Shown here piece after piece: positions 11,731 through 28,473 of a stretch of 28,473 bases of DNA. Both the position numbers and the translations under genes were made by a program. The stretch is from a virus, in the UHGV virus genome UHGV-0135791; one strand, written 5' to 3'. The first letter of the stretch is position 1. Each line of letters opens with the position of its first letter. Under the pieces are notes generated by a model that ran no database searches, had not been told where the DNA came from, and saw only the letters and a list, made by a program, of their open reading frames with translations.

Positions 11731-11812
11731 TTGCCTTGCAGGTTGGAATAATTTATTCTTGACATGTAAATCCGGGTGGCCCGGGTTCCAACGTCCAGGG
11801 GACATACTGACT

Positions 11813-12514
11813 ATGAATCGTTTTTTACGTTATCCGTTCCAGGAAGAAGCTGGGGCAGAAGATAAAGCTGGCGGCGGTGACGCGCCGAAAATGTACACAG
11901 CTGAAGAAGTGCGGGCGCTGATTGAGAAAGAAGTTGCCGGGCTTAAGGCCAATCAGGAAGCATTGCTGGCGGAGAAGAAAGAAGCCGCCCGCAAAGCAAA
12001 AGAGGCCGAAGAAGAACGACAGCGCGCACACCAGGAGGCGTTAAAAGCCGCCGGTAAGATGGACGAGTTCGAAAAGACGATTCGTAGCCAGTATGACCCG
12101 GTGTTAGCCGAGAAAGATGGTCGCATCTCCAGAATGGCAGAGCGCATCCTCGGCAGCGAACGTAAAGCGGTGTTAGGCTCTTTCGCGGGTGACTTTATTA
12201 CCCCGGAAGCAGTAGACATTCTTGCTCCGTTCGTTAAGACTGAGTTCGAAGGTGATGATGTGGTTACTAAGTTTGTCGGCGCAGACGGTAACGTAATCAC
12301 GACTGACCCGGAACAGTTCCGCAAATACCTGCGCGAACACAAAGCGTTTTCGCATTTGATTAAAGCAAATGCAGCTTCCGGCGGCGGGGCTTCCGGTGGC
12401 AAAGGCGGCGGGGCCGCACCAGCGTTTAAAGACATGAGTGAAGCGGAGCGTTTAGCTCTGTACAAATCGAACCCTGCCGAATTTGAACGGCAACTTAAAG
12501 CCCTGAGGAAATAA
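11813..12514 (+). CDS. scaffolding protein (putative)
   Basis: Ala/Glu/Lys-rich, helix-prone, about 234 aa, immediately upstream of the major capsid gene; start could also be 11759 or 11894. Confidence 0.65.
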   Translation: MNRFLRYPFQEEAGAEDKAGGGDAPKMYTAEEVRALIEKEVAGLKANQEALLAEKKEAARKAKEAEEERQRAHQEALKAAGKMDEFEKTIRSQYDPVLAEKDGRISRMAERILGSERKAVLGSFAGDFITPEAVDILAPFVKTEFEGDDVVTKFVGADGNVITTDPEQFRKYLREHKAFSHLIKANAASGGGASGGKGGGAAPAFKDMSEAERLALYKSNPAEFERQLKALRK

Positions 12515-12516
12515 TA

Positions 12517-13560
12517 ATGGCAATTACCACTATCGGCGATATCGTAACTGGCAACATCCCGGTCCTGGCGTCTTACATGACCGAGGACCCGGTGGAAAAA
12601 ACCGCGTTCTTCCAGTCCGGCATTCTGACCCCGACCCCGTACGCTGCCGAGATTGCTCGCGGCCCGTCCAACATCGCCAACATCCCTTTCTGGAAAGCGA
12701 TTGATACATCTATCGAGCCGAACTACTCGAACGATGTATACCAGGATATCGCCACCCCGCGTAACGTTCAGACCGGTGAGATGATGGCGCGCGTTGCGTA
12801 CCTGAACGAAGGTTTTGGCCAGGCCGACCTTACCGTCGAACTGACCAGCCAGAACCCGCTGCAATCCGTGGCTTCCCGTCTGGATAACTTCTGGCAGCGC
12901 CAGGCACAACGCCGTCTGATTGCTACTGCGCTCGGTCTGTACAACGACAACGTAGCCGCTACCGATGAATACCATACGCAGAACGATATGGTTGTCGACG
13001 TGTCTGCTTCTCTGGGCTTCGACGCAGGCGCATTCATCGACGCTACCCAGACTATGGGCGATGCTCTGATGGGCAACGGTGGCGAGGTGCTGGGTGCTAT
13101 CGCTATGCACAGCTTCGTTTATGCGCAGGCGCGTAAGCAGCAGCTTATTGACTTCATCAAAGACGCTGACAACGACACCTTGTTCGCCACCTACCAGGGC
13201 TACCGTGTGATTGTTGACGACAGCATGACCGTAGTCGGCTCCGGCGGCAGCCGCAAGTTCATCTCCATCATCTTCGGCAACGGCGCTATCGGTTACGGTG
13301 AAGGCAACCCGTCCAACCCGCTGGAATACGAGCGCGAAGCGTCTCGCGGTAATGGTGGTGGTGTAGAAACCCTGTGGTCCCGTAAGACCTGGCTGCTGCA
13401 CCCACTGGGCTACAGCTTCACCAGCGCGGTAATCACCGGCAACGGCACCGAGACTGTCGCACGTTCTGCGTCCTGGCAGGACCTGGCGAACGCCTCCAAC
13501 TGGAGCCGTGTGGTTGAGCGTAAGCATGTACCGATTGCCTTCCTGGTAACTGGTGCTTAA
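12517..13560 (+). CDS. major capsid protein (putative)
   Basis: 347 aa after the scaffold; RBS GAGGAAA; followed by a strong terminator, as expected for a highly expressed structural gene. Confidence 0.75.
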   Translation: MAITTIGDIVTGNIPVLASYMTEDPVEKTAFFQSGILTPTPYAAEIARGPSNIANIPFWKAIDTSIEPNYSNDVYQDIATPRNVQTGEMMARVAYLNEGFGQADLTVELTSQNPLQSVASRLDNFWQRQAQRRLIATALGLYNDNVAATDEYHTQNDMVVDVSASLGFDAGAFIDATQTMGDALMGNGGEVLGAIAMHSFVYAQARKQQLIDFIKDADNDTLFATYQGYRVIVDDSMTVVGSGGSRKFISIIFGNGAIGYGEGNPSNPLEYEREASRGNGGGVETLWSRKTWLLHPLGYSFTSAVITGNGTETVARSASWQDLANASNWSRVVERKHVPIAFLVTGA

Positions 13561-13576
13561 GGTTAATATATAATCG

Positions 13577-13604
13577 AGAGGGACTTCGGTCCCTCTTTTC
13601 ATTT
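13577..13604 (+). terminator. rho-independent terminator after capsid gene
   Basis: AGAGGGAC-TTCG-GTCCCTCT hairpin followed by TTTCATTT. Confidence 0.75.
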
Positions 13605-20287: not shown

Positions 20288-20620
20288 GTGGATAAGCATA
20301 AAATCAGAGAGTTTGATTCTATAGCTGACGGACACGAACAGGCGCTTATCGCAATGGGTGTAATCGATAAGAAAAAACGTGCAGCGCGACGGGGTGGGCC
20401 AGAATGCCCACCCCTTTTTATATCCACCTTTGAGACGTATTGCGACATTAAGTTTACGCGACACGTGCGCGAGGACGCTGTAGTATTGTTTGCAAGAGAA
20501 TCCGTTACGTGGCAAGACCTGAAAGCCTATCTCGATGTTACGCAAAAGCAGCTTAGCCTGTTCGAGATAGACATTATCATGGGCTTAGAAGCAATCTTTG
20601 AAGGTAGAAATCATGGCTGA
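20288..20620 (+). CDS. tail assembly chaperone T-like segment, probably made as a G-T fusion by -1 frameshift
   Basis: Track ORF (GTG start, no clear RBS) lies in the -1 frame relative to the G-like gene and overlaps the TMP start. Confidence 0.4.
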   Translation: MDKHKIREFDSIADGHEQALIAMGVIDKKKRAARRGGPECPPLFISTFETYCDIKFTRHVREDAVVLFARESVTWQDLKAYLDVTQKQLSLFEIDIIMGLEAIFEGRNHG

Positions 20621-22895
20621 TACCGCTAGTTTGATAGTACGAGTATCATCGACCGGCGTCGATAAAACCACATCACAACTGAACGGGCTTACCAAAGCCG
20701 CAGGTGCTGCAGCTGCTGCCGTCGTCAGTCTGGAAACCGCTAAGCAGGTGTTCAGCGCGCTGGTAGACTCCCAGCGCAACTTCGATAAGCTGAACTCCGG
20801 CCTAATCACAATGACCGGGAGTGCTGAGAACGCGGCTAAGGCTTTCAGCGTCCTGCAACAGTTCGCAAAAGAAACCCCGTACGGGCTTAACCAAGCGGTG
20901 GAAGGCTTTACTAAGCTGGTGGCCCTTGGCCTGAACCCAAGCAAAGAGGCGTTAATCTCCTACGGCAACACTGCCGCGGCGATGGGCAAAGACCTTAACC
21001 AGATGATTGAGGCAGTTGCCGACGCCAGTACATTTGAATTTGAGCGACTGAAAGAGTTCGGTATCAAGTCTTCTCAACAGGCGGATACTGTTTCGTTCAC
21101 GTTCCGTGGCGTAACGACCACGGTTAAGAAGAACTCCGAAGAGATTCAGAAATACCTTCTGAACATCGGTAATACCGATTTCGCAGGGGCGATGGAAACG
21201 CGTTCGAAAACCCTTGACGGGCAGTTATCCAGCCTCGCGGACTCCTTCGACGGCCTTGTACTTGCGGTGGCGCAATCAGGTTTCGGTGACGCGGTGGGTG
21301 AACAAGCAGCAACAGCGGAAGACGCTATCACGGCCCTCACCGACGCCATCGCGTCTAATGAGATAGCCGCCACGCTCCAGGATTGGGTGACACTGTTCAA
21401 TGAATCGTTCAAGTTTATTTCTGATGCCTTAAACGACCTGGCATACGATACCGGGGACAAATCCGCAGATATGTCAGACTCGCTGGGGACTATCCCGGAC
21501 GCTATCCGTGAGTGGTTGCCTGATATACAGCAGACATTCCACGAGGTTATTGCGTGGTTCCAGCGCATTGACGATTACGCCGTAGCGCTTGGCCAGACCC
21601 TCGCCGACGTGTTTGACCCGAGCAAAACGGCAGCGCTAACATTTAAAAAACTGACCGCAGAAGCCGACGCCGCATACGACGCCAGCATAAAACGCGCAGA
21701 GGCCGAATCACAGGCCATTACCAACAGGTCTAAGCAGCGTAAGAAAGAAATTGAGGAACAGCGCAAGCAGTATGACGAGCGCAAGAAGCAAGAAATCGAC
21801 CTAGCCAGCCTTGTTAATGGGAAGGGCGGAAAGGGTGGAACTGGCGGAGCCGGAAATACTAACGACAAAGACGCGAAAGCCGCCGCTAAGAAGGCGGAGC
21901 AATTGCGCAAACAGGCCCAGGATTACCTCGACACTTTGGCCCGTCAGAACAACGACGAGTTAAAGGCTATCGACGCGCAGGAACAGCAGAAACTGGCTAA
22001 AGCAAAAGAGTTTTACAGTCAGGGCGCGTTGTCTCTGAAAGAGTACGAGCAAGCAAAAACGGCTATCGTCCTTGAAGCAGGGCAAAAACGGCAAGATGAA
22101 CTGGATAAACGCCAGAAAGAAGCCCAGGAAAAGCAGCAGAAAGGCGATGACTTCATGGCCCAGATTATGGGTCAGAACGCCACTGAGCTTGAGCTTCTCG
22201 ATATCCAGGAACAGCAGAAACTGGCTGTCGCCGATAAATACCGCGAACAGGGTCTGATTAGTGAGAAGCAGTATCAGGCTGCGCTTAACGCCATCAACGA
22301 GCAGTACGCCACGAAGCGCGCCGACGCAACGGCAACCGCCTTTGGTAACATGGCTTCAAACATCGGGTCTGCGTTGGGTGAGGCTTCTGGCGCATACAAG
22401 GCATTCGCTATCGTACAGGCCACTATCGCCACGTACACCGCGGCTATTGAGGCGTACAAGTCCACGGCGGCTATCCCTGTAGTTGGCCCGTTCCTGGCTC
22501 CCGTAGCCGCTGCTGCTGCCGTTGGGGCGGGTATGGCGCAGATTTCCGCTATCAGGTCTGCGCGTGAACAGGGTGGGCAGTTATCCGCCGGGCAGGCTTC
22601 TACTATCGCCGAACGCGGTAAACCAGAAGTTATCATGCCCGCTGGTGCGTCACGTGTACGCACTGCGCAGCAGATGAAAGAAATTATGGGGCAAAACGGC
22701 GGCAGTACCGGGTCAGCCAATATCAGCATTATAAATAACACCAGCGCACAAATTGGTAATACCAGTGTTGAACAGGACGAAGAAGGCCGCTTGCGTATCA
22801 TTATAGAGGAGCAAGTTGCTGCTTCGCTGCAGAATAGTAACAGCAAAATATCGAAAGCTAGGAAGGCTACAAGAAACGCACCCGGCTTTAAGTAA
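20613..22895 (+). CDS. tail tape measure protein
   Basis: About 760 aa, Ala/Gln/Lys-rich with internal repeats (QEQQKLAKAKEFYSQG / QEQQKLAVADKYREQG) and a Gly-rich stretch. Confidence 0.85.
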   Translation: MADTASLIVRVSSTGVDKTTSQLNGLTKAAGAAAAAVVSLETAKQVFSALVDSQRNFDKLNSGLITMTGSAENAAKAFSVLQQFAKETPYGLNQAVEGFTKLVALGLNPSKEALISYGNTAAAMGKDLNQMIEAVADASTFEFERLKEFGIKSSQQADTVSFTFRGVTTTVKKNSEEIQKYLLNIGNTDFAGAMETRSKTLDGQLSSLADSFDGLVLAVAQSGFGDAVGEQAATAEDAITALTDAIASNEIAATLQDWVTLFNESFKFISDALNDLAYDTGDKSADMSDSLGTIPDAIREWLPDIQQTFHEVIAWFQRIDDYAVALGQTLADVFDPSKTAALTFKKLTAEADAAYDASIKRAEAESQAITNRSKQRKKEIEEQRKQYDERKKQEIDLASLVNGKGGKGGTGGAGNTNDKDAKAAAKKAEQLRKQAQDYLDTLARQNNDELKAIDAQEQQKLAKAKEFYSQGALSLKEYEQAKTAIVLEAGQKRQDELDKRQKEAQEKQQKGDDFMAQIMGQNATELELLDIQEQQKLAVADKYREQGLISEKQYQAALNAINEQYATKRADATATAFGNMASNIGSALGEASGAYKAFAIVQATIATYTAAIEAYKSTAAIPVVGPFLAPVAAAAAVGAGMAQISAIRSAREQGGQLSAGQASTIAERGKPEVIMPAGASRVRTAQQMKEIMGQNGGSTGSANISIINNTSAQIGNTSVEQDEEGRLRIIIEEQVAASLQNSNSKISKARKATRNAPGFK

Positions 22896-22902
22896 TAACA
22901 GA

Positions 22903-22926
22903 AAGGCCCGAAAGGGCCTTATTTCT
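22903..22926. terminator. bidirectional rho-independent terminator
   Basis: AAGGCCC-GAAA-GGGCCTT hairpin followed by ATTTCT; lies between convergent genes. Confidence 0.65.
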
Positions 22927-22938
22927 CCCGCCTCTGGG

Positions 22939-23589
22939 CTAACGACCCTCTTTTATCAAGGCGATAACGCGGTCGAACATACCTTCCCTTATCGCCTCTA
23001 TCTCACATCTTCTTGATTCCGCCGCCCTTATCTTTTCAGCAATGTAAGCATCTAGCGCTTCTTCCTGAGTTTCAAAACGTCCTAGATTAATAGTTTTTTT
23101 ATCACAGCTCACTGAGGCTTTAAATTTACCTCTAGATTCTTCATAAAAAACACCTGTAGGTGTTCCACTATTTTTCTTCTCCTTTAGGAAAACATTCAAC
23201 CATTTCGGGATGAAAATGCAAGTGGTAGGGCTGTATACCTTATTAATACCAGAGAATATGTCCTTATCTAGCTCCCATCCCTCCACATAATTACAAAGCC
23301 ACCATCTACGGAAGGACATAAACCTTTGCCACCCTGGCCACACAGTTACATCCCGGTACGCAGGCCTTTTGTTTTTATACTCGGTGTCCACGCAACGTTG
23401 GATCATCCCTCGCCATGTAGCGTACGCCAGACACGTCTCACGGCTGCCGTTTATCTTGGGGCTAACCACATAATCGGCGTCATTTATGCCAAAACCACAT
23501 ATAGTTGCACGCTTAGTTTTGCTGCTTTTGTTCGCAGGATAATTCGCACGCAGCCACATGCTCTTGGCTACTTTTTCGGTTGGCATCAT
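22939..23589 (-). CDS. HNH homing endonuclease with C-terminal AP2-like DNA-binding domain
   Basis: N-terminal pattern ATWRGMIQRC...AYRDVTVWPGWQRFMSFRRWW...ELDKDI; C-terminal GVFYEESRGKFKASVSCDKKTINLGRFETQEEALDAYIAEKIR is AP2-like. RBS AGGAGA before the ATGATG start; AT-rich. Confidence 0.65.
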   Translation of the reverse strand: MMPTEKVAKSMWLRANYPANKSSKTKRATICGFGINDADYVVSPKINGSRETCLAYATWRGMIQRCVDTEYKNKRPAYRDVTVWPGWQRFMSFRRWWLCNYVEGWELDKDIFSGINKVYSPTTCIFIPKWLNVFLKEKKNSGTPTGVFYEESRGKFKASVSCDKKTINLGRFETQEEALDAYIAEKIRAAESRRCEIEAIREGMFDRVIALIKEGR

Positions 23590-23624
23590 GTTAGTATCTC
23601 CTAAACTAATAGGAGTATCTTGCC

Positions 23625-24125
23625 ATGTCTTCTTTGAAATTTCCAGCAAGTTTAAAGCCAGTGGTGTCAAAAGGCTACTCGATGACCAGACGCAACAACG
23701 TCTGGAGTGTAGATTTAGCTGGCGGCGGTGTACGTCAGGGGCGCGACACGTATTACGACGTGTTCCCGATAAGCGTAACCCTGATTACCTCAGCGCTAGG
23801 GCGTCAGGCGTTTCTGTCGTTCCTCGAAAAAGTCGATGGCGGTGCGTCAAGTTTCTGGATGGCGCACGACTTCGGCATGGGTATCGAGGATTATCAGGTA
23901 ACGATCACGTCCACCATCGCGGAGTCTACCGAAGATGGAATTAACTGGACGATTACTTTCACGGCAACCGCTGAGAAATCGCCGTTCCAGAACCTTGAGA
24001 ACCAGTGCCTGATTAACAATCTGCCGGATTTGTATGGTTGCTATGGCGACGGGCTGGGATGTTTCCTTAAAGCCTACGGAACCGCACAATCAACGTTTCC
24101 ACGAATTTGGGACCCGATGCAATGA
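23625..24125 (+). CDS. minor/distal tail protein (putative), 166 aa
   Basis: First gene after the TMP/HNH region; AGGAG 9 nt upstream. Confidence 0.6.
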   Translation: MSSLKFPASLKPVVSKGYSMTRRNNVWSVDLAGGGVRQGRDTYYDVFPISVTLITSALGRQAFLSFLEKVDGGASSFWMAHDFGMGIEDYQVTITSTIAESTEDGINWTITFTATAEKSPFQNLENQCLINNLPDLYGCYGDGLGCFLKAYGTAQSTFPRIWDPMQ

Positions 24126-24637
24126 GCCAGGAATCAGTAGAAGCAGCCTATCGCCGTAAGCTGGCCTCAAATCCCGACGGCGAGATGGACTACATCACGT
24201 TGCAAATCAGCCACCCGTTGCTGTCGAAGACCTATTATCTCGTGCGCGGGCTACAGGAACTTACGGCAACACTGGAGACGGGCGAAACAATCACGTTCGA
24301 ACCTACCCCAATGGAAGCGTCAGGGGCTGCCAACAATAGTGACATGGACCAGACGACGACGTTTACTCTACCGGATATTCTCAATCAACTGGATGACGAG
24401 ATGGACAAAATCCCGATGAGTAACACCGAGTTGCCGAAGTTCGTCTTCCGCCGTTATGTCAGCACCGACCTGTCTTACCCGGCGGACGGCCCTGTCGTGT
24501 ACGAGTTACAGGCCATCAACCAGGAGAAAGGCGAGTTCTCCGCGGATGTCGGTACACCTATGCTGAACCAACGAAGCACTGGTATACTGATGACACCTAA
24601 AGAGATACCGTTATTACGCGGCCTGTTGACTACATGA
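24122..24637 (+). CDS. minor tail protein (putative)
   Basis: ATGA coupling at 24122-24125; track ORF begins 24107 with TTG. Confidence 0.6.
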   Translation: MSQESVEAAYRRKLASNPDGEMDYITLQISHPLLSKTYYLVRGLQELTATLETGETITFEPTPMEASGAANNSDMDQTTTFTLPDILNQLDDEMDKIPMSNTELPKFVFRRYVSTDLSYPADGPVVYELQAINQEKGEFSADVGTPMLNQRSTGILMTPKEIPLLRGLLTT

Positions 24638-24999
24638 ACATTAACGACTACACGGGCATACCTTACGACTTTCGCAAGCGCAATTGCTGGCACCATGTGC
24701 GCATTGTCCGCGCGGATGCCGGGTTAGAAACCCCGGCGTTCGACGTTACAAGCCCAACGGCAATTAACGAAGCGTTCGACGAAGGTCACCGCAACACGAA
24801 GGGGCTTACGAAAATTGATAAGCCCGAAAACTTCTGTGCGGTGCTTATGGGTTATCGCCGTGGGGGTCGTATCGTGTGGCACGCGGGAGTTTACTTCGAC
24901 GGGATGGTGAGTCATTGTGAGCTTGCGTCGCGTCAGGTACGGCTTGACAGGCTGGCGGACCTCAGAGACACGTACACGGAGATTGAATTTTGGCGATAA
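24634..24999 (+). CDS. tail assembly protein, NlpC/P60-like (lambda K C-terminal-domain-like)
   Basis: Candidate Cys-His-His triad (NCWHHV, WHAGVY, VSHCE); ATGA coupling. Confidence 0.6.
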   Translation: MNINDYTGIPYDFRKRNCWHHVRIVRADAGLETPAFDVTSPTAINEAFDEGHRNTKGLTKIDKPENFCAVLMGYRRGGRIVWHAGVYFDGMVSHCELASRQVRLDRLADLRDTYTEIEFWR

Positions 25000-27545
25000 T
25001 CCTGCACTACACGCGAAACGCTGAGGGCGCTTTCGACCGTACAAAACACGTCGGGATGCCGATGGAGTTTGTCGTTAACCGTATCCCGGACGGCGTGCCG
25101 GTGCGCGTCTACCTCGGCGAGATTGGCGATGATACTGATGTCACCGACGACTTCGACGCACTTAAAGATGAAGACGCTGTATATCACATTATCGAGGGTG
25201 CGGGCGGCGGGATAGGTAACGCTATTGGGAAGGTGTTTGGTTTTATCCTTAAGCCAATTGCCAAGTTGTTTGGCCTGAACACGGCCGCCAACGCCAACTA
25301 CACGGCGACTAACAACCAGACAACGTCACCGAATAACAGCCTAACAGACCGCTCCAACAAGCCGCGTCCTTACGAGCGCTCCTATGACATCTGTGGGACT
25401 GTGCAGACAATCCCTAACGACCTGATGCAGACGTATAAGGCGTTCAACTCCACTGGTGCTTTGCTGGAATATTCGTACTATGACGCAGGGCGCGGACATC
25501 TGCATATTGAGGCTGATGGCGTCACAGAGGGCGACACCCTGATAAGCGACATCACAGGTTCCTCTGTTGCCGTATACGCGCCGTATACGTCACCGAACAA
25601 CACCACATCGCCGCAGCTACAAATCGGCGACATCATTGATCAGAAACTCTATGTTACATACTCCAACGACGACGTTGACGGTATCGTATTGAAAGCGCCA
25701 AACGACATCGGGGCTAACCCAAGCTCCGGCGGAACCGCCAAACGTATTTCGACCACCGGCTACCTCTACGACCCGTCAGGTGACTCTGCCTTTTCTGAGT
25801 TTCTTAACGTAGGTGACGTCGCAGTGCTGAGCAATTTTGACGTTAAGGACGTCACTAACCTGAACGGCTCATTTGAGGTTTTATATGTCGACGACTTCGA
25901 GGTTCGGCTGTACGTCGGGAATATAGGTAACTGGGGAAATCTTAATAGCGGAGAGACTTACGCGCTTACAGAGCGTTCATATACGTTTATAGGCCCAAGC
26001 AACACCTATGACGTATCTCTTACAGACTGGTATTACATGGTGCGCGGAGAAGTTGACCGGGTACTCGCTAACGTTGCAGGGCAGAACGGCCTCTACAAAT
26101 ACGACGGCGGCTATAATCGCACCAGCGTAACCGTAGAACTCCAGTACCAGATGATTGATTCCCAACGTAACCCGTTGGGCGATATTTACACAGTACAAGC
26201 TACAATTACGGGCAACAATACGGATTACGTCGGTACGTCCATTTATGGGCAGTTGCCTACCGCATCGCGTTTCCGCGCCCGCATGCGCCGCATAACGAAT
26301 TTCGATAAGGGCTACGACGGGACGGTAAGCGACGAGATAACGTTCATCAACCTGTACGGACAATCACTCGACACCACCTCGCACTACGGCAACAGAACTA
26401 CCGTACATTGCGCCCGTAAACAGACGCCTCGGGCCGCCAGTATCGACAACCCGGAACTGCGCATGATTGCAACCGAGATGTGCTACAAATACCTCGGCAA
26501 TGGGGTATTCGATACTGTAATGACCCCAAATACTCAGGCGGTGCAGTCGCTGATCAGACTGGCGCGCGACCCGGCGGTGGGTAATCTGGAACTGACAACG
26601 GCAAACATGGACAAGTTACTTGCTGTGCAGGAAGAGATTGAGTCCTATTTCGGAAGTGAGTTAGCGGGTCAGTTCTGCTACACGTTCGACGACTACGACA
26701 CCACGATGCAGGACATCGTTCAGACTATAGCGGAAGCCGTGTTCTGTACCGCGTACCGTAAAGGTGCGGATATTATGCTGCGATTCGACCGCCCGGTCGC
26801 CGGGCCAGAGATGGTGTTTACCCACCGCAGCAAAACTACCGGTACGGAGAAATGGACCCGCACGTTCAACGATTCTACGACCTACGATAGCCTGTCGTTC
26901 TCGTACATCGACCCGGATACGAACGTACAGGAGACGATTTATATACCGGAAGAACTCGGCGCAAACACCGAGGAGTACGAATCGAAAGGCGTGCGCAACT
27001 ATCAGCAGGCATATTGGCTAGCGTGGCGTCGCTACCAGCGTAACACGTTAAGTAAAGTTGTCGTAGAGTTCGAAGCTACCGAAGAGGGGGCGCTCGCTAC
27101 ACCGGGCGGTGTAATCAGCGTGGTTAAAGGTTCACGTATTGCGCCACAGGACGGCTATATTGTTGCCGTTAATGGGCTTACGCTGACACTGTCACAGCCC
27201 GTTACTTTCACACCCGGCGACGACCATTCTATCATCCTCAAGAAGCGCGACGGCTCCGTACAGAGTATATCTGTTATCAAAGGAACCCACGACCGCGAGG
27301 TGATTATGCTCTCTGCGCCGGAGGAGGCAATCTACACAGGGAATAGTGCGCTAAAAACTGAGTTTTCATTCGGCAACGAAGCAAGGCATAATGCTCAGAA
27401 GATAGTTGTTTCTTCAATCGACCCTGGTGACGACCGCACGGTCAAGATTACTGGTTACAACTACGACGACGGATTCTATAAATACGACGGCGTCGCGCCT
27501 TACGGCAGCGGTTTCTCCGACGGATTCAGCAATGGTTTTAATTAA
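24990..27545 (+). CDS. central tail fiber / tip attachment protein (lambda J-like) with gpI-like N-terminal region
   Basis: 851 aa; RFRARMRRIT parallels lambda J IRMRRMT; N-terminal 100 aa (DAVYHIIEGAGGGIGNAIGKVFGFIL) resemble lambda gpI; TTG start at 24990 is uncertain. Confidence 0.75.
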   Translation: MAIILHYTRNAEGAFDRTKHVGMPMEFVVNRIPDGVPVRVYLGEIGDDTDVTDDFDALKDEDAVYHIIEGAGGGIGNAIGKVFGFILKPIAKLFGLNTAANANYTATNNQTTSPNNSLTDRSNKPRPYERSYDICGTVQTIPNDLMQTYKAFNSTGALLEYSYYDAGRGHLHIEADGVTEGDTLISDITGSSVAVYAPYTSPNNTTSPQLQIGDIIDQKLYVTYSNDDVDGIVLKAPNDIGANPSSGGTAKRISTTGYLYDPSGDSAFSEFLNVGDVAVLSNFDVKDVTNLNGSFEVLYVDDFEVRLYVGNIGNWGNLNSGETYALTERSYTFIGPSNTYDVSLTDWYYMVRGEVDRVLANVAGQNGLYKYDGGYNRTSVTVELQYQMIDSQRNPLGDIYTVQATITGNNTDYVGTSIYGQLPTASRFRARMRRITNFDKGYDGTVSDEITFINLYGQSLDTTSHYGNRTTVHCARKQTPRAASIDNPELRMIATEMCYKYLGNGVFDTVMTPNTQAVQSLIRLARDPAVGNLELTTANMDKLLAVQEEIESYFGSELAGQFCYTFDDYDTTMQDIVQTIAEAVFCTAYRKGADIMLRFDRPVAGPEMVFTHRSKTTGTEKWTRTFNDSTTYDSLSFSYIDPDTNVQETIYIPEELGANTEEYESKGVRNYQQAYWLAWRRYQRNTLSKVVVEFEATEEGALATPGGVISVVKGSRIAPQDGYIVAVNGLTLTLSQPVTFTPGDDHSIILKKRDGSVQSISVIKGTHDREVIMLSAPEEAIYTGNSALKTEFSFGNEARHNAQKIVVSSIDPGDDRTVKITGYNYDDGFYKYDGVAPYGSGFSDGFSNGFN

Positions 27546-27557
27546 AGAGGACTCTAT

Positions 27558-28473
27558 ATGTCAAGCGGATGCGGTGACGTTTTAAGCCTGGCGGATTTAC
27601 AGACCGCCAAGAAACACCAGATTTTCGAAGCTGAAGTCATCACTGGCAAATCCGGCGGGGTTGCTGGTGGTGCAGATATTGATTACGCTACTAATCCGGT
27701 AACTGGGCAGATGCAGAAAACGCTTCCAGCCGTGTTGCGCGATGCTGGTTTTTCTCCTGTATCGTGGGACTTTTCCACCGGCGGTACGTTAACAGTTAAT
27801 GACCGCGACAAAGTTGTTTACGACCCGGTAAGCCTGACTTGGTACTCATATGCAGGTACGTTGCCGGTTACGGTTCCCGCGAGTTTTAACCCCGTCGGTA
27901 ACGCAAACTGGAAGCCGCAGACGGACCCAAATTTGCGTAATGATTTGGCGTCAAGTACCGCCGGTTTAGGGGCTTCACTGGTGTCTTTTTCCAACGGTAA
28001 CACCGTTGGAACATTATCTGACGCGGACGGTGCCAAGAACATAGGCAGCGGCGAAAGGAGTTTGCTTGCACGTAACAATGATGTTAAGCATTCTGGCGAC
28101 TTTTCTACCCTGCAAGCCGCGGTGGATGCGTCGCTACCGAAAAATGACTTACTTATTTCCCCTGGCGAATATACTGAAAAAGTTACTATTGGTAACGCAC
28201 AGTTAAAAGGCGTTGGTGGGGCTGTAGTACTAAAAACACCAACAGGCTTTACAAACACTGTCCAGGTTAATTCATCTACACCCCATTGGCAATTCCGCCA
28301 TAGTTGTGGTTTTGCTATAGATGGTTCTGGAACAACCGGGAGCGTAGGTATTAGTTTTGACCCGTCAGACCAATATTCTGGCCGACATAATTTTAGTGAT
28401 TTATACATCCACAACATCAACAAGGCCATTCAGAAGCCTTCCGGGAACATCGGTAATACATGGAGAAATATTG
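27558..28473 (+). CDS. tailspike/tail fiber, 5' partial (runs off window end)
   Basis: RBS AAAGAGGA then ATG 27558; open to the window end (305 codons); from about residue 180 the sequence looks like the start of a pectate-lyase-type beta-helix. Confidence 0.7.
   Translation, partial: MSSGCGDVLSLADLQTAKKHQIFEAEVITGKSGGVAGGADIDYATNPVTGQMQKTLPAVLRDAGFSPVSWDFSTGGTLTVNDRDKVVYDPVSLTWYSYAGTLPVTVPASFNPVGNANWKPQTDPNLRNDLASSTAGLGASLVSFSNGNTVGTLSDADGAKNIGSGERSLLARNNDVKHSGDFSTLQAAVDASLPKNDLLISPGEYTEKVTIGNAQLKGVGGAVVLKTPTGFTNTVQVNSSTPHWQFRHSCGFAIDGSGTTGSVGISFDPSDQYSGRHNFSDLYIHNINKAIQKPSGNIGNTWRNI

Follow-up and report, generated by a model that had tools for sequence, protein, structure and literature searches.

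In phage lambda, gpI is a component of the virion in which residues 101 or 135 to 223 have been resolved, forming hydrophobic helices, a plug beneath the C-terminal end of the tape measure, and strands that augment the sheets of gpJ (PMC10721106, PMC11101478, PMC12617516). Its N-terminal domain has never been resolved, and the model begins at residue 101, just past a Gly-Gly pair (PMC10721106, PMC11101478). Iyer, Burroughs and Aravind described TAPI in 2006 as a ThiS/MoaD-like ubiquitin-like (Ubl) domain with a conserved C-terminal Gly, a Gly-rich linker and a small C-domain, and reported it as "in some prophages fused to TAPJ", the fused forms being accompanied by an NlpC-only K (PMC1779556). 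In Shigella phage Sf11, gp14, the "Baseplate hub 2 protein" (BH2P), has been modelled by cryo-electron microscopy (cryo-EM) as one chain from residue 81 to residue 827 (9OCC chain E; PMC12724387). Here we report a gene of this kind in the UHGV virus genome UHGV-0135791, whose whole analysed stretch of 28,473 nucleotides (nt) is referred to below as the window. The gene is an open reading frame (ORF) at 24990..27545 on the plus strand (2556 nt, 851 amino acids (aa)) that starts with TTG and joins a gpI-like module to a TipJ/J-like hub of the BH2P type.

The product of this ORF is probably the trimeric hub protein in the baseplate of a siphophage of Kagunavirus type, equivalent to Sf11 gp14 (BH2P) and the TipJ family, and combines in one chain the jobs of gpI and of the N-terminal half of gpJ. 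Judged by its sequence, the window belongs to a siphophage resembling Kagunavirus: over bases 24600-27600 it shares 91-92% identity with K1G, K1ind1, KMB36 and other Guernseyvirinae, and the same 2556-nt coding sequence (CDS), with the same overlap with the gene upstream, is annotated "tail protein" in K1ind1 and KMB36. A single-chain hub with a Ubl head is an ordinary and already known arrangement, because database entries 97% identical to the 851-aa protein exist, an NCBIfam model describes the family, a homologue has a cryo-EM structure, and the fused architecture lacking a JAB domain was described in 2006. A sequence-only reading of the locus had proposed either an I-J gene fusion or a missed recoding event. 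The gpI-like module and the J-like hub do lie on one chain, but this is no anomaly of the window genome; within the clade the N-terminus is a normal part of the J homologues, the same ORF and TTG recurring in nearly all of 78 related loci.

The TTG-initiated frame and its J-like hub domains

The TipJ-family host-specificity/hub domain of NCBIfam NF040662 (attach_TipJ_rel) matches residues 354-831 (26049..27482, plus strand) with E=8.5e-114; its score of 380.7 bits far exceeds the curated cutoff of 140, and the match spans model positions 4-477 of 477. BLASTP aligns residues 330-762 (25977..27275, plus strand) collinearly with residues 86-533 of lambda gpJ (E=1e-6, 21% identity). Within this match FRARMRRIT is paired with FNIRMRRMT of lambda J, which bears out the J-like character that the sequence-only reading had seen in RARMRRIT (residues 429-436, 26274-26297). 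Pfam adds weak matches to FNIII-A_GpJ (369-437) and Phage-tail_3 (571-714). With residue 330 corresponding to J residue 86, the protein carries about 245 N-terminal residues beyond lambda J; lambda gpI has 223 aa.

Homology to the solved hub of Sf11 was found by phmmer, which matched 9OCC_E (Sf11 gp14) in the PDB at E=6.3e-27 over two collinear stretches of the query, 33-245 and 528-832. A full-length AlphaFold2 model reached a mean predicted local distance difference test (pLDDT) score of only 45, with residues 73-232 and 440-851 unusable. The top Foldseek matches of this model were Sf11 9occ_E, lambda gpJ (8k35_A, 9e7m_Ja, 8xcg_J and 8iyk_F) and T1 9l9p_S, all with poor TM-scores.

The start codon is the TTG at 24990..24992, and no start is possible farther 5' because an in-frame TGA (24984-24986) precedes it. 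A Shine-Dalgarno (SD) sequence, GGAG (24978..24981), lies 8 nt before the TTG and within the end of the upstream gene, whose stop codon TAA (24997-24999) creates a 10-nt overlap with the hub ORF. We compared the start across 78 related viral loci, 52-97% identical over the N-terminus, which with the window make 79. At the corresponding position 78 of the 79 have TTG and the remaining one has GTG, an SD-like GGAG, GAGG or AGGA motif lies within 20 nt 5' of the start in 77, and the 10-nt overlap is retained in 66. The TTG start with a ribosome-binding site named in the sequence-only reading is therefore upheld, and its position for the first ATG, 25053, needs correction: the first in-frame ATG is at 25056 (Met23) and the second at 25062 (Met25; both within 25056..25064, plus strand).

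Public gene calls are divided, about half using the TTG (851/848 aa) and half one of the internal ATG codons (827/824 aa). ATG is the commoner start codon and is chosen by many automatic annotations, and with a start at 25056 or 25062 the first 22-24 codons would be an untranslated leader. We consider such a start very improbable. Over codons 5-24, which lie past the overlap and before the internal ATG, the summed column entropy in the 79 loci is 14.7, 15.0 and 26.6 at codon positions 1, 2 and 3; the third position varies 1.8 times as much as the first two, and because of this signature these codons are taken to be translated. Residues 1-22 (MAIIxHYTRNxxGxF...) remain recognisably conserved as protein in homologues 41-62% identical overall. 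In nine of the 79 loci Met is absent from residues 16-30, showing that the internal ATG is not conserved, and no SD lies ahead of it in the window sequence. The TTG start is supported independently by the predicted fold, because residues 2-22 form the two strands before Met23 that belong to the confidently predicted beta-grasp described below. The 827/824-aa public versions are truncated proteins with their first two beta-strands cut off. Gene calls for this hub family should use the TTG start, as about half of them at present remove part of a folded domain.

The sequence of the overlap, GAG ATT GAA TTT TGG CGA TAA (24979..24999), is unusually conserved in relatives down to about 52% protein identity (L004-L083). 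It encodes the ...FWR* C-terminus of the upstream protein and also the SD, the TTG and the Met-Ala-Ile of the hub, and this dual coding probably accounts for its conservation. The overlap also suggests translational coupling with the upstream gene. A frameshift fusion of the K-position gene to the hub at the conserved GAATTTTGG overlap was considered and rejected, because the hub-frame TGA two codons before the TTG blocks that frame and because dual coding (FWR* and MAI) explains the conservation; nor is this a canonical slippery site.

The hub frame is open throughout 24990..27545, and both alternative frames reach stops within about 25 nt past residue 70. Among the 78 relatives the ORF is intact, at 843-865 aa, in 74. 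The other four (L008, L036, L046 and L050) are frameshifted near residues 381, 264, 661 and 645, respectively, with homologous sequence going on in another frame. These split loci, one of them broken near residue 264, could be taken to indicate that separate I and J genes are masked by a recoding event or a sequencing indel, or that such an event adds an I-only product, and a single X XXY YYZ heptamer, GGGAAAT at 25934, might be cited as well. We find this hardly credible. The four frameshift sites are unrelated to one another, the stretch 25190-25900 contains neither a slippery X XXY YYZ heptamer nor a homopolymer of six or more, and the Sf11 gp14 model is a single chain across the junction. 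With scattered frameshifts and no slippery sequence close to the junction, recoding is unsupported, and neither it nor a fusion anomaly is needed to describe the locus. The frameshifts in the four relatives are probably assembly errors or pseudogenes. The one in L036, a 42,572-bp contig, lies near the module boundary.

The N-terminal module and lambda gpI

Residues 1-72 (24990..25205, plus strand) are predicted to form a ubiquitin-like beta-grasp. When residues 1-106 were modelled with AlphaFold2 from a 21-sequence alignment, block-mean pLDDT was 83-91 across residues 1-70, with strands at 2-9, 15-22, 38-42 and 64-69 and a helix at 24-31. The C-terminal end of the beta-grasp is marked by the glycine run E69-G-A-G-G-G74 (25194..25211, plus strand), a candidate processing or hinge site; in family alignment A4, E69 and G72 never vary and G74 hardly ever does. 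A Gly-rich amphipathic/hydrophobic helix follows at residues 75-96, IGNAIGKVFGFILKPIAKLFGL (25212..25277, plus strand), the putative counterpart of helices H1/H2 of lambda gpI. AlphaFold2 places a helix at 80-93 with low confidence, and the sequence of this region varies in the relatives while always remaining hydrophobic, as in the plain transmembrane-like ALVVGALVALVVVAATVLL of P0022. The motif GAGGGIGNAIGKVFGFIL quoted in the sequence-only reading corresponds to residues 70-87 (25197-25250).

The best-conserved part of the module is N108...M146, with the pattern N-Q-x-x-S-P-N-N-S-L-T-D-R-x-N-K-P-R-P-Y-E-R-x-Y-D-I-C-G...IPNDLM. This segment (residues 108-146, 25311..25427, plus strand), which contains invariant columns in alignments A1 and A3, is proposed to correspond to the part of gpI that forms the plug and strands.

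Based on these observations, residues 1-245 are gpI-like in architecture, predicted fold and gene position. The module has the gpI-family features of a predicted N-terminal Ubl beta-grasp and of a Gly at the Ubl C-terminus followed by a hydrophobic linker. It stands directly after the 121-aa gene in the lambda-K position and ahead of the J-like domains, in the same ORF, and no other candidate I gene was found from 22895 to 27545 in the ORF list or with Pfam or PHROG. The resemblance of the first 100 or so residues to gpI, as claimed in the sequence-only reading, thus holds for architecture, fold and position but not for sequence, for which Pfam was negative and hhalign gave a probability of about 1%.

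Several results weigh against a relationship with gpI. Neither Pfam PF06805 (Lambda_tail_I) nor ThiS was present at E<=10 in the N-terminal 201 aa or in 15 family members. The family profile compared by hhalign with lambda gpI alone gave nothing significant (E=0.04, probability <1.5%), and a 31-sequence profile compared with 13 diverse gpI sequences aligned residues 86-140 to gpI 147-204 at E=0.078 and probability 0.7%, a collinear and positionally sensible match, yet not a significant one. Foldseek of the Ubl model against BFVD returned same-family N-termini only, and no gpI. When 1.84 billion representatives were searched with a hidden Markov model (HMM) of residues 1-106, only 15 proteins matched, each at its N-terminus; all were hub-like proteins or fragments, with no free-standing protein of the I type among them, and no fission or fusion intermediate was seen. 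AlphaFold2 gave no reliable model for residues 73-232, and because of this the plug role of that region rests on analogy. Pfam gives no support to the peptidase nature of the 121-aa protein. The JAB/MPN partner domain expected of the adjacent K protein was not found in it, a variant that Iyer et al. describe for the fused forms.

Searching a word index with the first 201 aa brought up only 13 fragments. The homologue search with lambda gpI yielded only 99-100% identical copies, of no use for a profile, and the 13 gpI sequences were taken from phage records. The paper on the T1 tail does not mention gpI. In one phage record, that of Burkholderia phage phiBtTUL1a (L166; OR360541.1 29359-30243), a lambda-gpI-like ORF some 195 aa long is intact in one frame. 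What is annotated instead is a pair of small hypothetical CDS, together with a CDS for J that starts inside the ORF, which looks like misannotation.

Alternatively, the beta-grasp and helix could be an extension that a J-like hub gained in this lineage, by convergence or independent acquisition and without gpI ancestry, in which case "I-J fusion" would be a misnomer. We regard this as unlikely. The order of the elements (Ubl, terminal Gly-Gly, hydrophobic helix, polar stretch, strands) matches that of gpI, as does the gene position, which follows a K-position gene and precedes the J domains, a separate I gene being absent, and the sole hhalign alignment is collinear and falls where it would be expected. 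The hub of the related phage NX263 is annotated MoaD/ThiS, like the Ubl of TAPI, and the Ubl is unresolved in the virions of lambda and Sf11 alike. We infer that the N-terminal module and gpI share an ancestor.

Tail genes around the hub

The upstream 121-aa gene (24634..24999, plus strand) occupies the lambda-K position and matches PHROG 329, "minor tail protein", at E=4.5e-12. It is labelled "murein DD-endopeptidase" or "peptidoglycan endopeptidase" in relatives, and Cys18, His83 and His94 occur in an NlpC/P60-like H-x-G-V-Y...H pattern. BLASTP with lambda K aligned only the catalytic-Cys region of the NlpC/P60 half, weakly (E=0.22), and BLASTP with the NlpC/P60 protein of NX263 found no similarity. 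The protein has no Pfam match, and no JAB match in Pfam or NCBIfam; it is too short for a JAB/MPN domain. From these sequence features it is probably an NlpC/P60-like peptidase.

Downstream, a tailspike gene starts with ATG at 27558 and runs past the window end (27558..28473, plus strand). In K1ind1 and KMB36 the tailspike likewise begins 13 nt past the hub stop, and the BASEL paper places tailspikes directly 3' of the J-like gene. Farther upstream, the gpL equivalent is a separate gene with DUF1833 (24107..24637), preceded by a 166-aa gene in the distal tail protein position (23625..24125, plus strand), and the tape-measure gene lies at 20598..22895. The protein in the distal-tail position has two length variants in the clade, with 166 aa in the window and in KMB36 and 466 aa in K1ind1 (L001 2119..3519); the Sf11 counterpart, gp17, has 457 aa, and its tailspike-docking helix already lies within residues 3-165.

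Between the tape-measure gene and the 166-aa distal-tail-like gene, a 243-aa HNH/AP2-domain endonuclease-like ORF is found on the opposite strand (22939..23670, minus strand; PHROG 953, E=1e-65; weak Pfam AP2). No gene occupies this position in K1ind1 or KMB36, and the ORF has the look of a homing endonuclease inserted into the tail module. In NX263, too, the tape-measure gene is followed by an ORF on the reverse strand. A 549-aa ORF at 11953..13602 (minus strand), antisense to two ORFs of the plus strand, 11759..12514 and 12517..13560, probably represents a shadow ORF of structural genes.

Proposed role of the hub and comparison with known systems

In light of the gpI and Sf11 structures, a sequence of events at the tail tip can be proposed for the single-chain hub. 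The Ubl domain (residues 1-72) would serve during assembly and would later be removed at the glycine run or left disordered. By analogy with gpI, residues ~75-245 would plug the tail lumen and hold the C-terminal end of the tape measure, the extended segment ~100-245 threading into the hub beneath that end, and the hydrophobic helix 75-96 may face the outer membrane when the tip opens. Residues ~330-831 would build the conserved hub cone. A lambda-type C-terminal fibre is absent, and host binding would be left to the tailspike encoded next. The weak TTG start, overlapping the upstream stop, may provide coupled, low-level synthesis fitting three copies per virion.

A more specific version, which we put forward tentatively, would make the Ubl a removable intramolecular assembly chaperone, cut at EGAGGG by the adjacent papain-fold NlpC/P60 protein so as to free the hydrophobic helix as a lumen plug and membrane-insertion element. 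If so, the cut would be a deubiquitinase-like reaction carried out without a JAB peptidase, amounting to viral processing of a Ubl that forms part of a virion protein, and removal of the Ubl would explain its absence from tail structures. The function and fate of the Ubl are a question general to gpI-type modules, for which the fused version lacking a JAB domain would offer a convenient test system.

Comparable single-chain hubs occur in all three more distant phages examined. The 811-aa hub of Salmonella phage NX263 (L176 3830..6265) is annotated "MoaD/ThiS family protein" and follows a Pfam-positive NlpC/P60 gene; BLASTP with the query gave matches at 3e-21 and 2e-13. The name indicates that some annotation pipeline recognised the Ubl, which Pfam at E<=1 does not. 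Escherichia phage KarinMuster_Bas82 has an 843-aa hub that is 29% identical over residues 26-833 (E=8e-78) and has ...ELPKGG at the junction, and Vibrio phage BUCT006 has a 917-aa hub whose N-terminal tblastn match covers query residues 113-240 only.

The structure that has been solved is that of Sf11 gp14, not of a Kagunavirus protein. Sf11 gp14 is homologous to the query in both the N-terminal module and the hub and is of similar length (828 versus 851 aa). Its N-terminal ~80 residues are missing from the cryo-EM model, which by the phmmer alignment begins inside the hydrophobic helix, about 10 residues past the Gly that ends the Ubl. The NX263 hub is near-identical to Sf11 gp14, although its CDS begins about 17 aa later (811 versus 828 aa), and its gene order is comparable to that of the window, the tape-measure gene being followed by two small tail genes, an NlpC/P60 gene of small size, the hub and, downstream, a "tail protein", probably the tailspike. 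The Sf11 genes, numbered gp18 to gp13, come in the same order as those of NX263. Sf11 gp14 and the NX263 hub differ from the query in being only about 26% identical to it and in having a shorter junction, QPSG-AIG in place of EGAGGG.

Lambda gpI (the tail tip assembly or "insertion" protein) and gpJ (the central tail fibre or tip attachment protein) present the elements predicted or proposed for the query, in the same order (Ubl, Gly-Gly, hydrophobic helices, plug and strands, then the hub) and at the same gene position after K, but as two polypeptides instead of one. Lambda gpI has no significant sequence similarity to the query, lambda gpJ (1132 aa) has a C-terminal fibre and receptor-binding domain that the 851-aa query lacks, and lambda K has a JAB domain where the upstream 121-aa protein has none. 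The window hub may be viewed as a clean natural example of the I and J functions of lambda on one chain. The TAPI-TAPJ fusions of Iyer et al. (2006, Genome Biol 7:R60) resemble it in uniting a Ubl-containing TAPI with TAPJ and in accompanying an NlpC/P60 without JAB, while their examples are prophages, found by PSI-BLAST from MoaD/ThiS. In T5, pb3 also carries hub domains and a lumen plug on one chain; its plug is an insertion inside HDII, whereas the proposed plug module of the query is N-terminal, and pb3 has no Ubl domain and contains the gpL-equivalent HDI, a separate gene in the window. The one-chain hub supports the view that the domains of siphophage tail tips are conserved and are distributed differently among genes.

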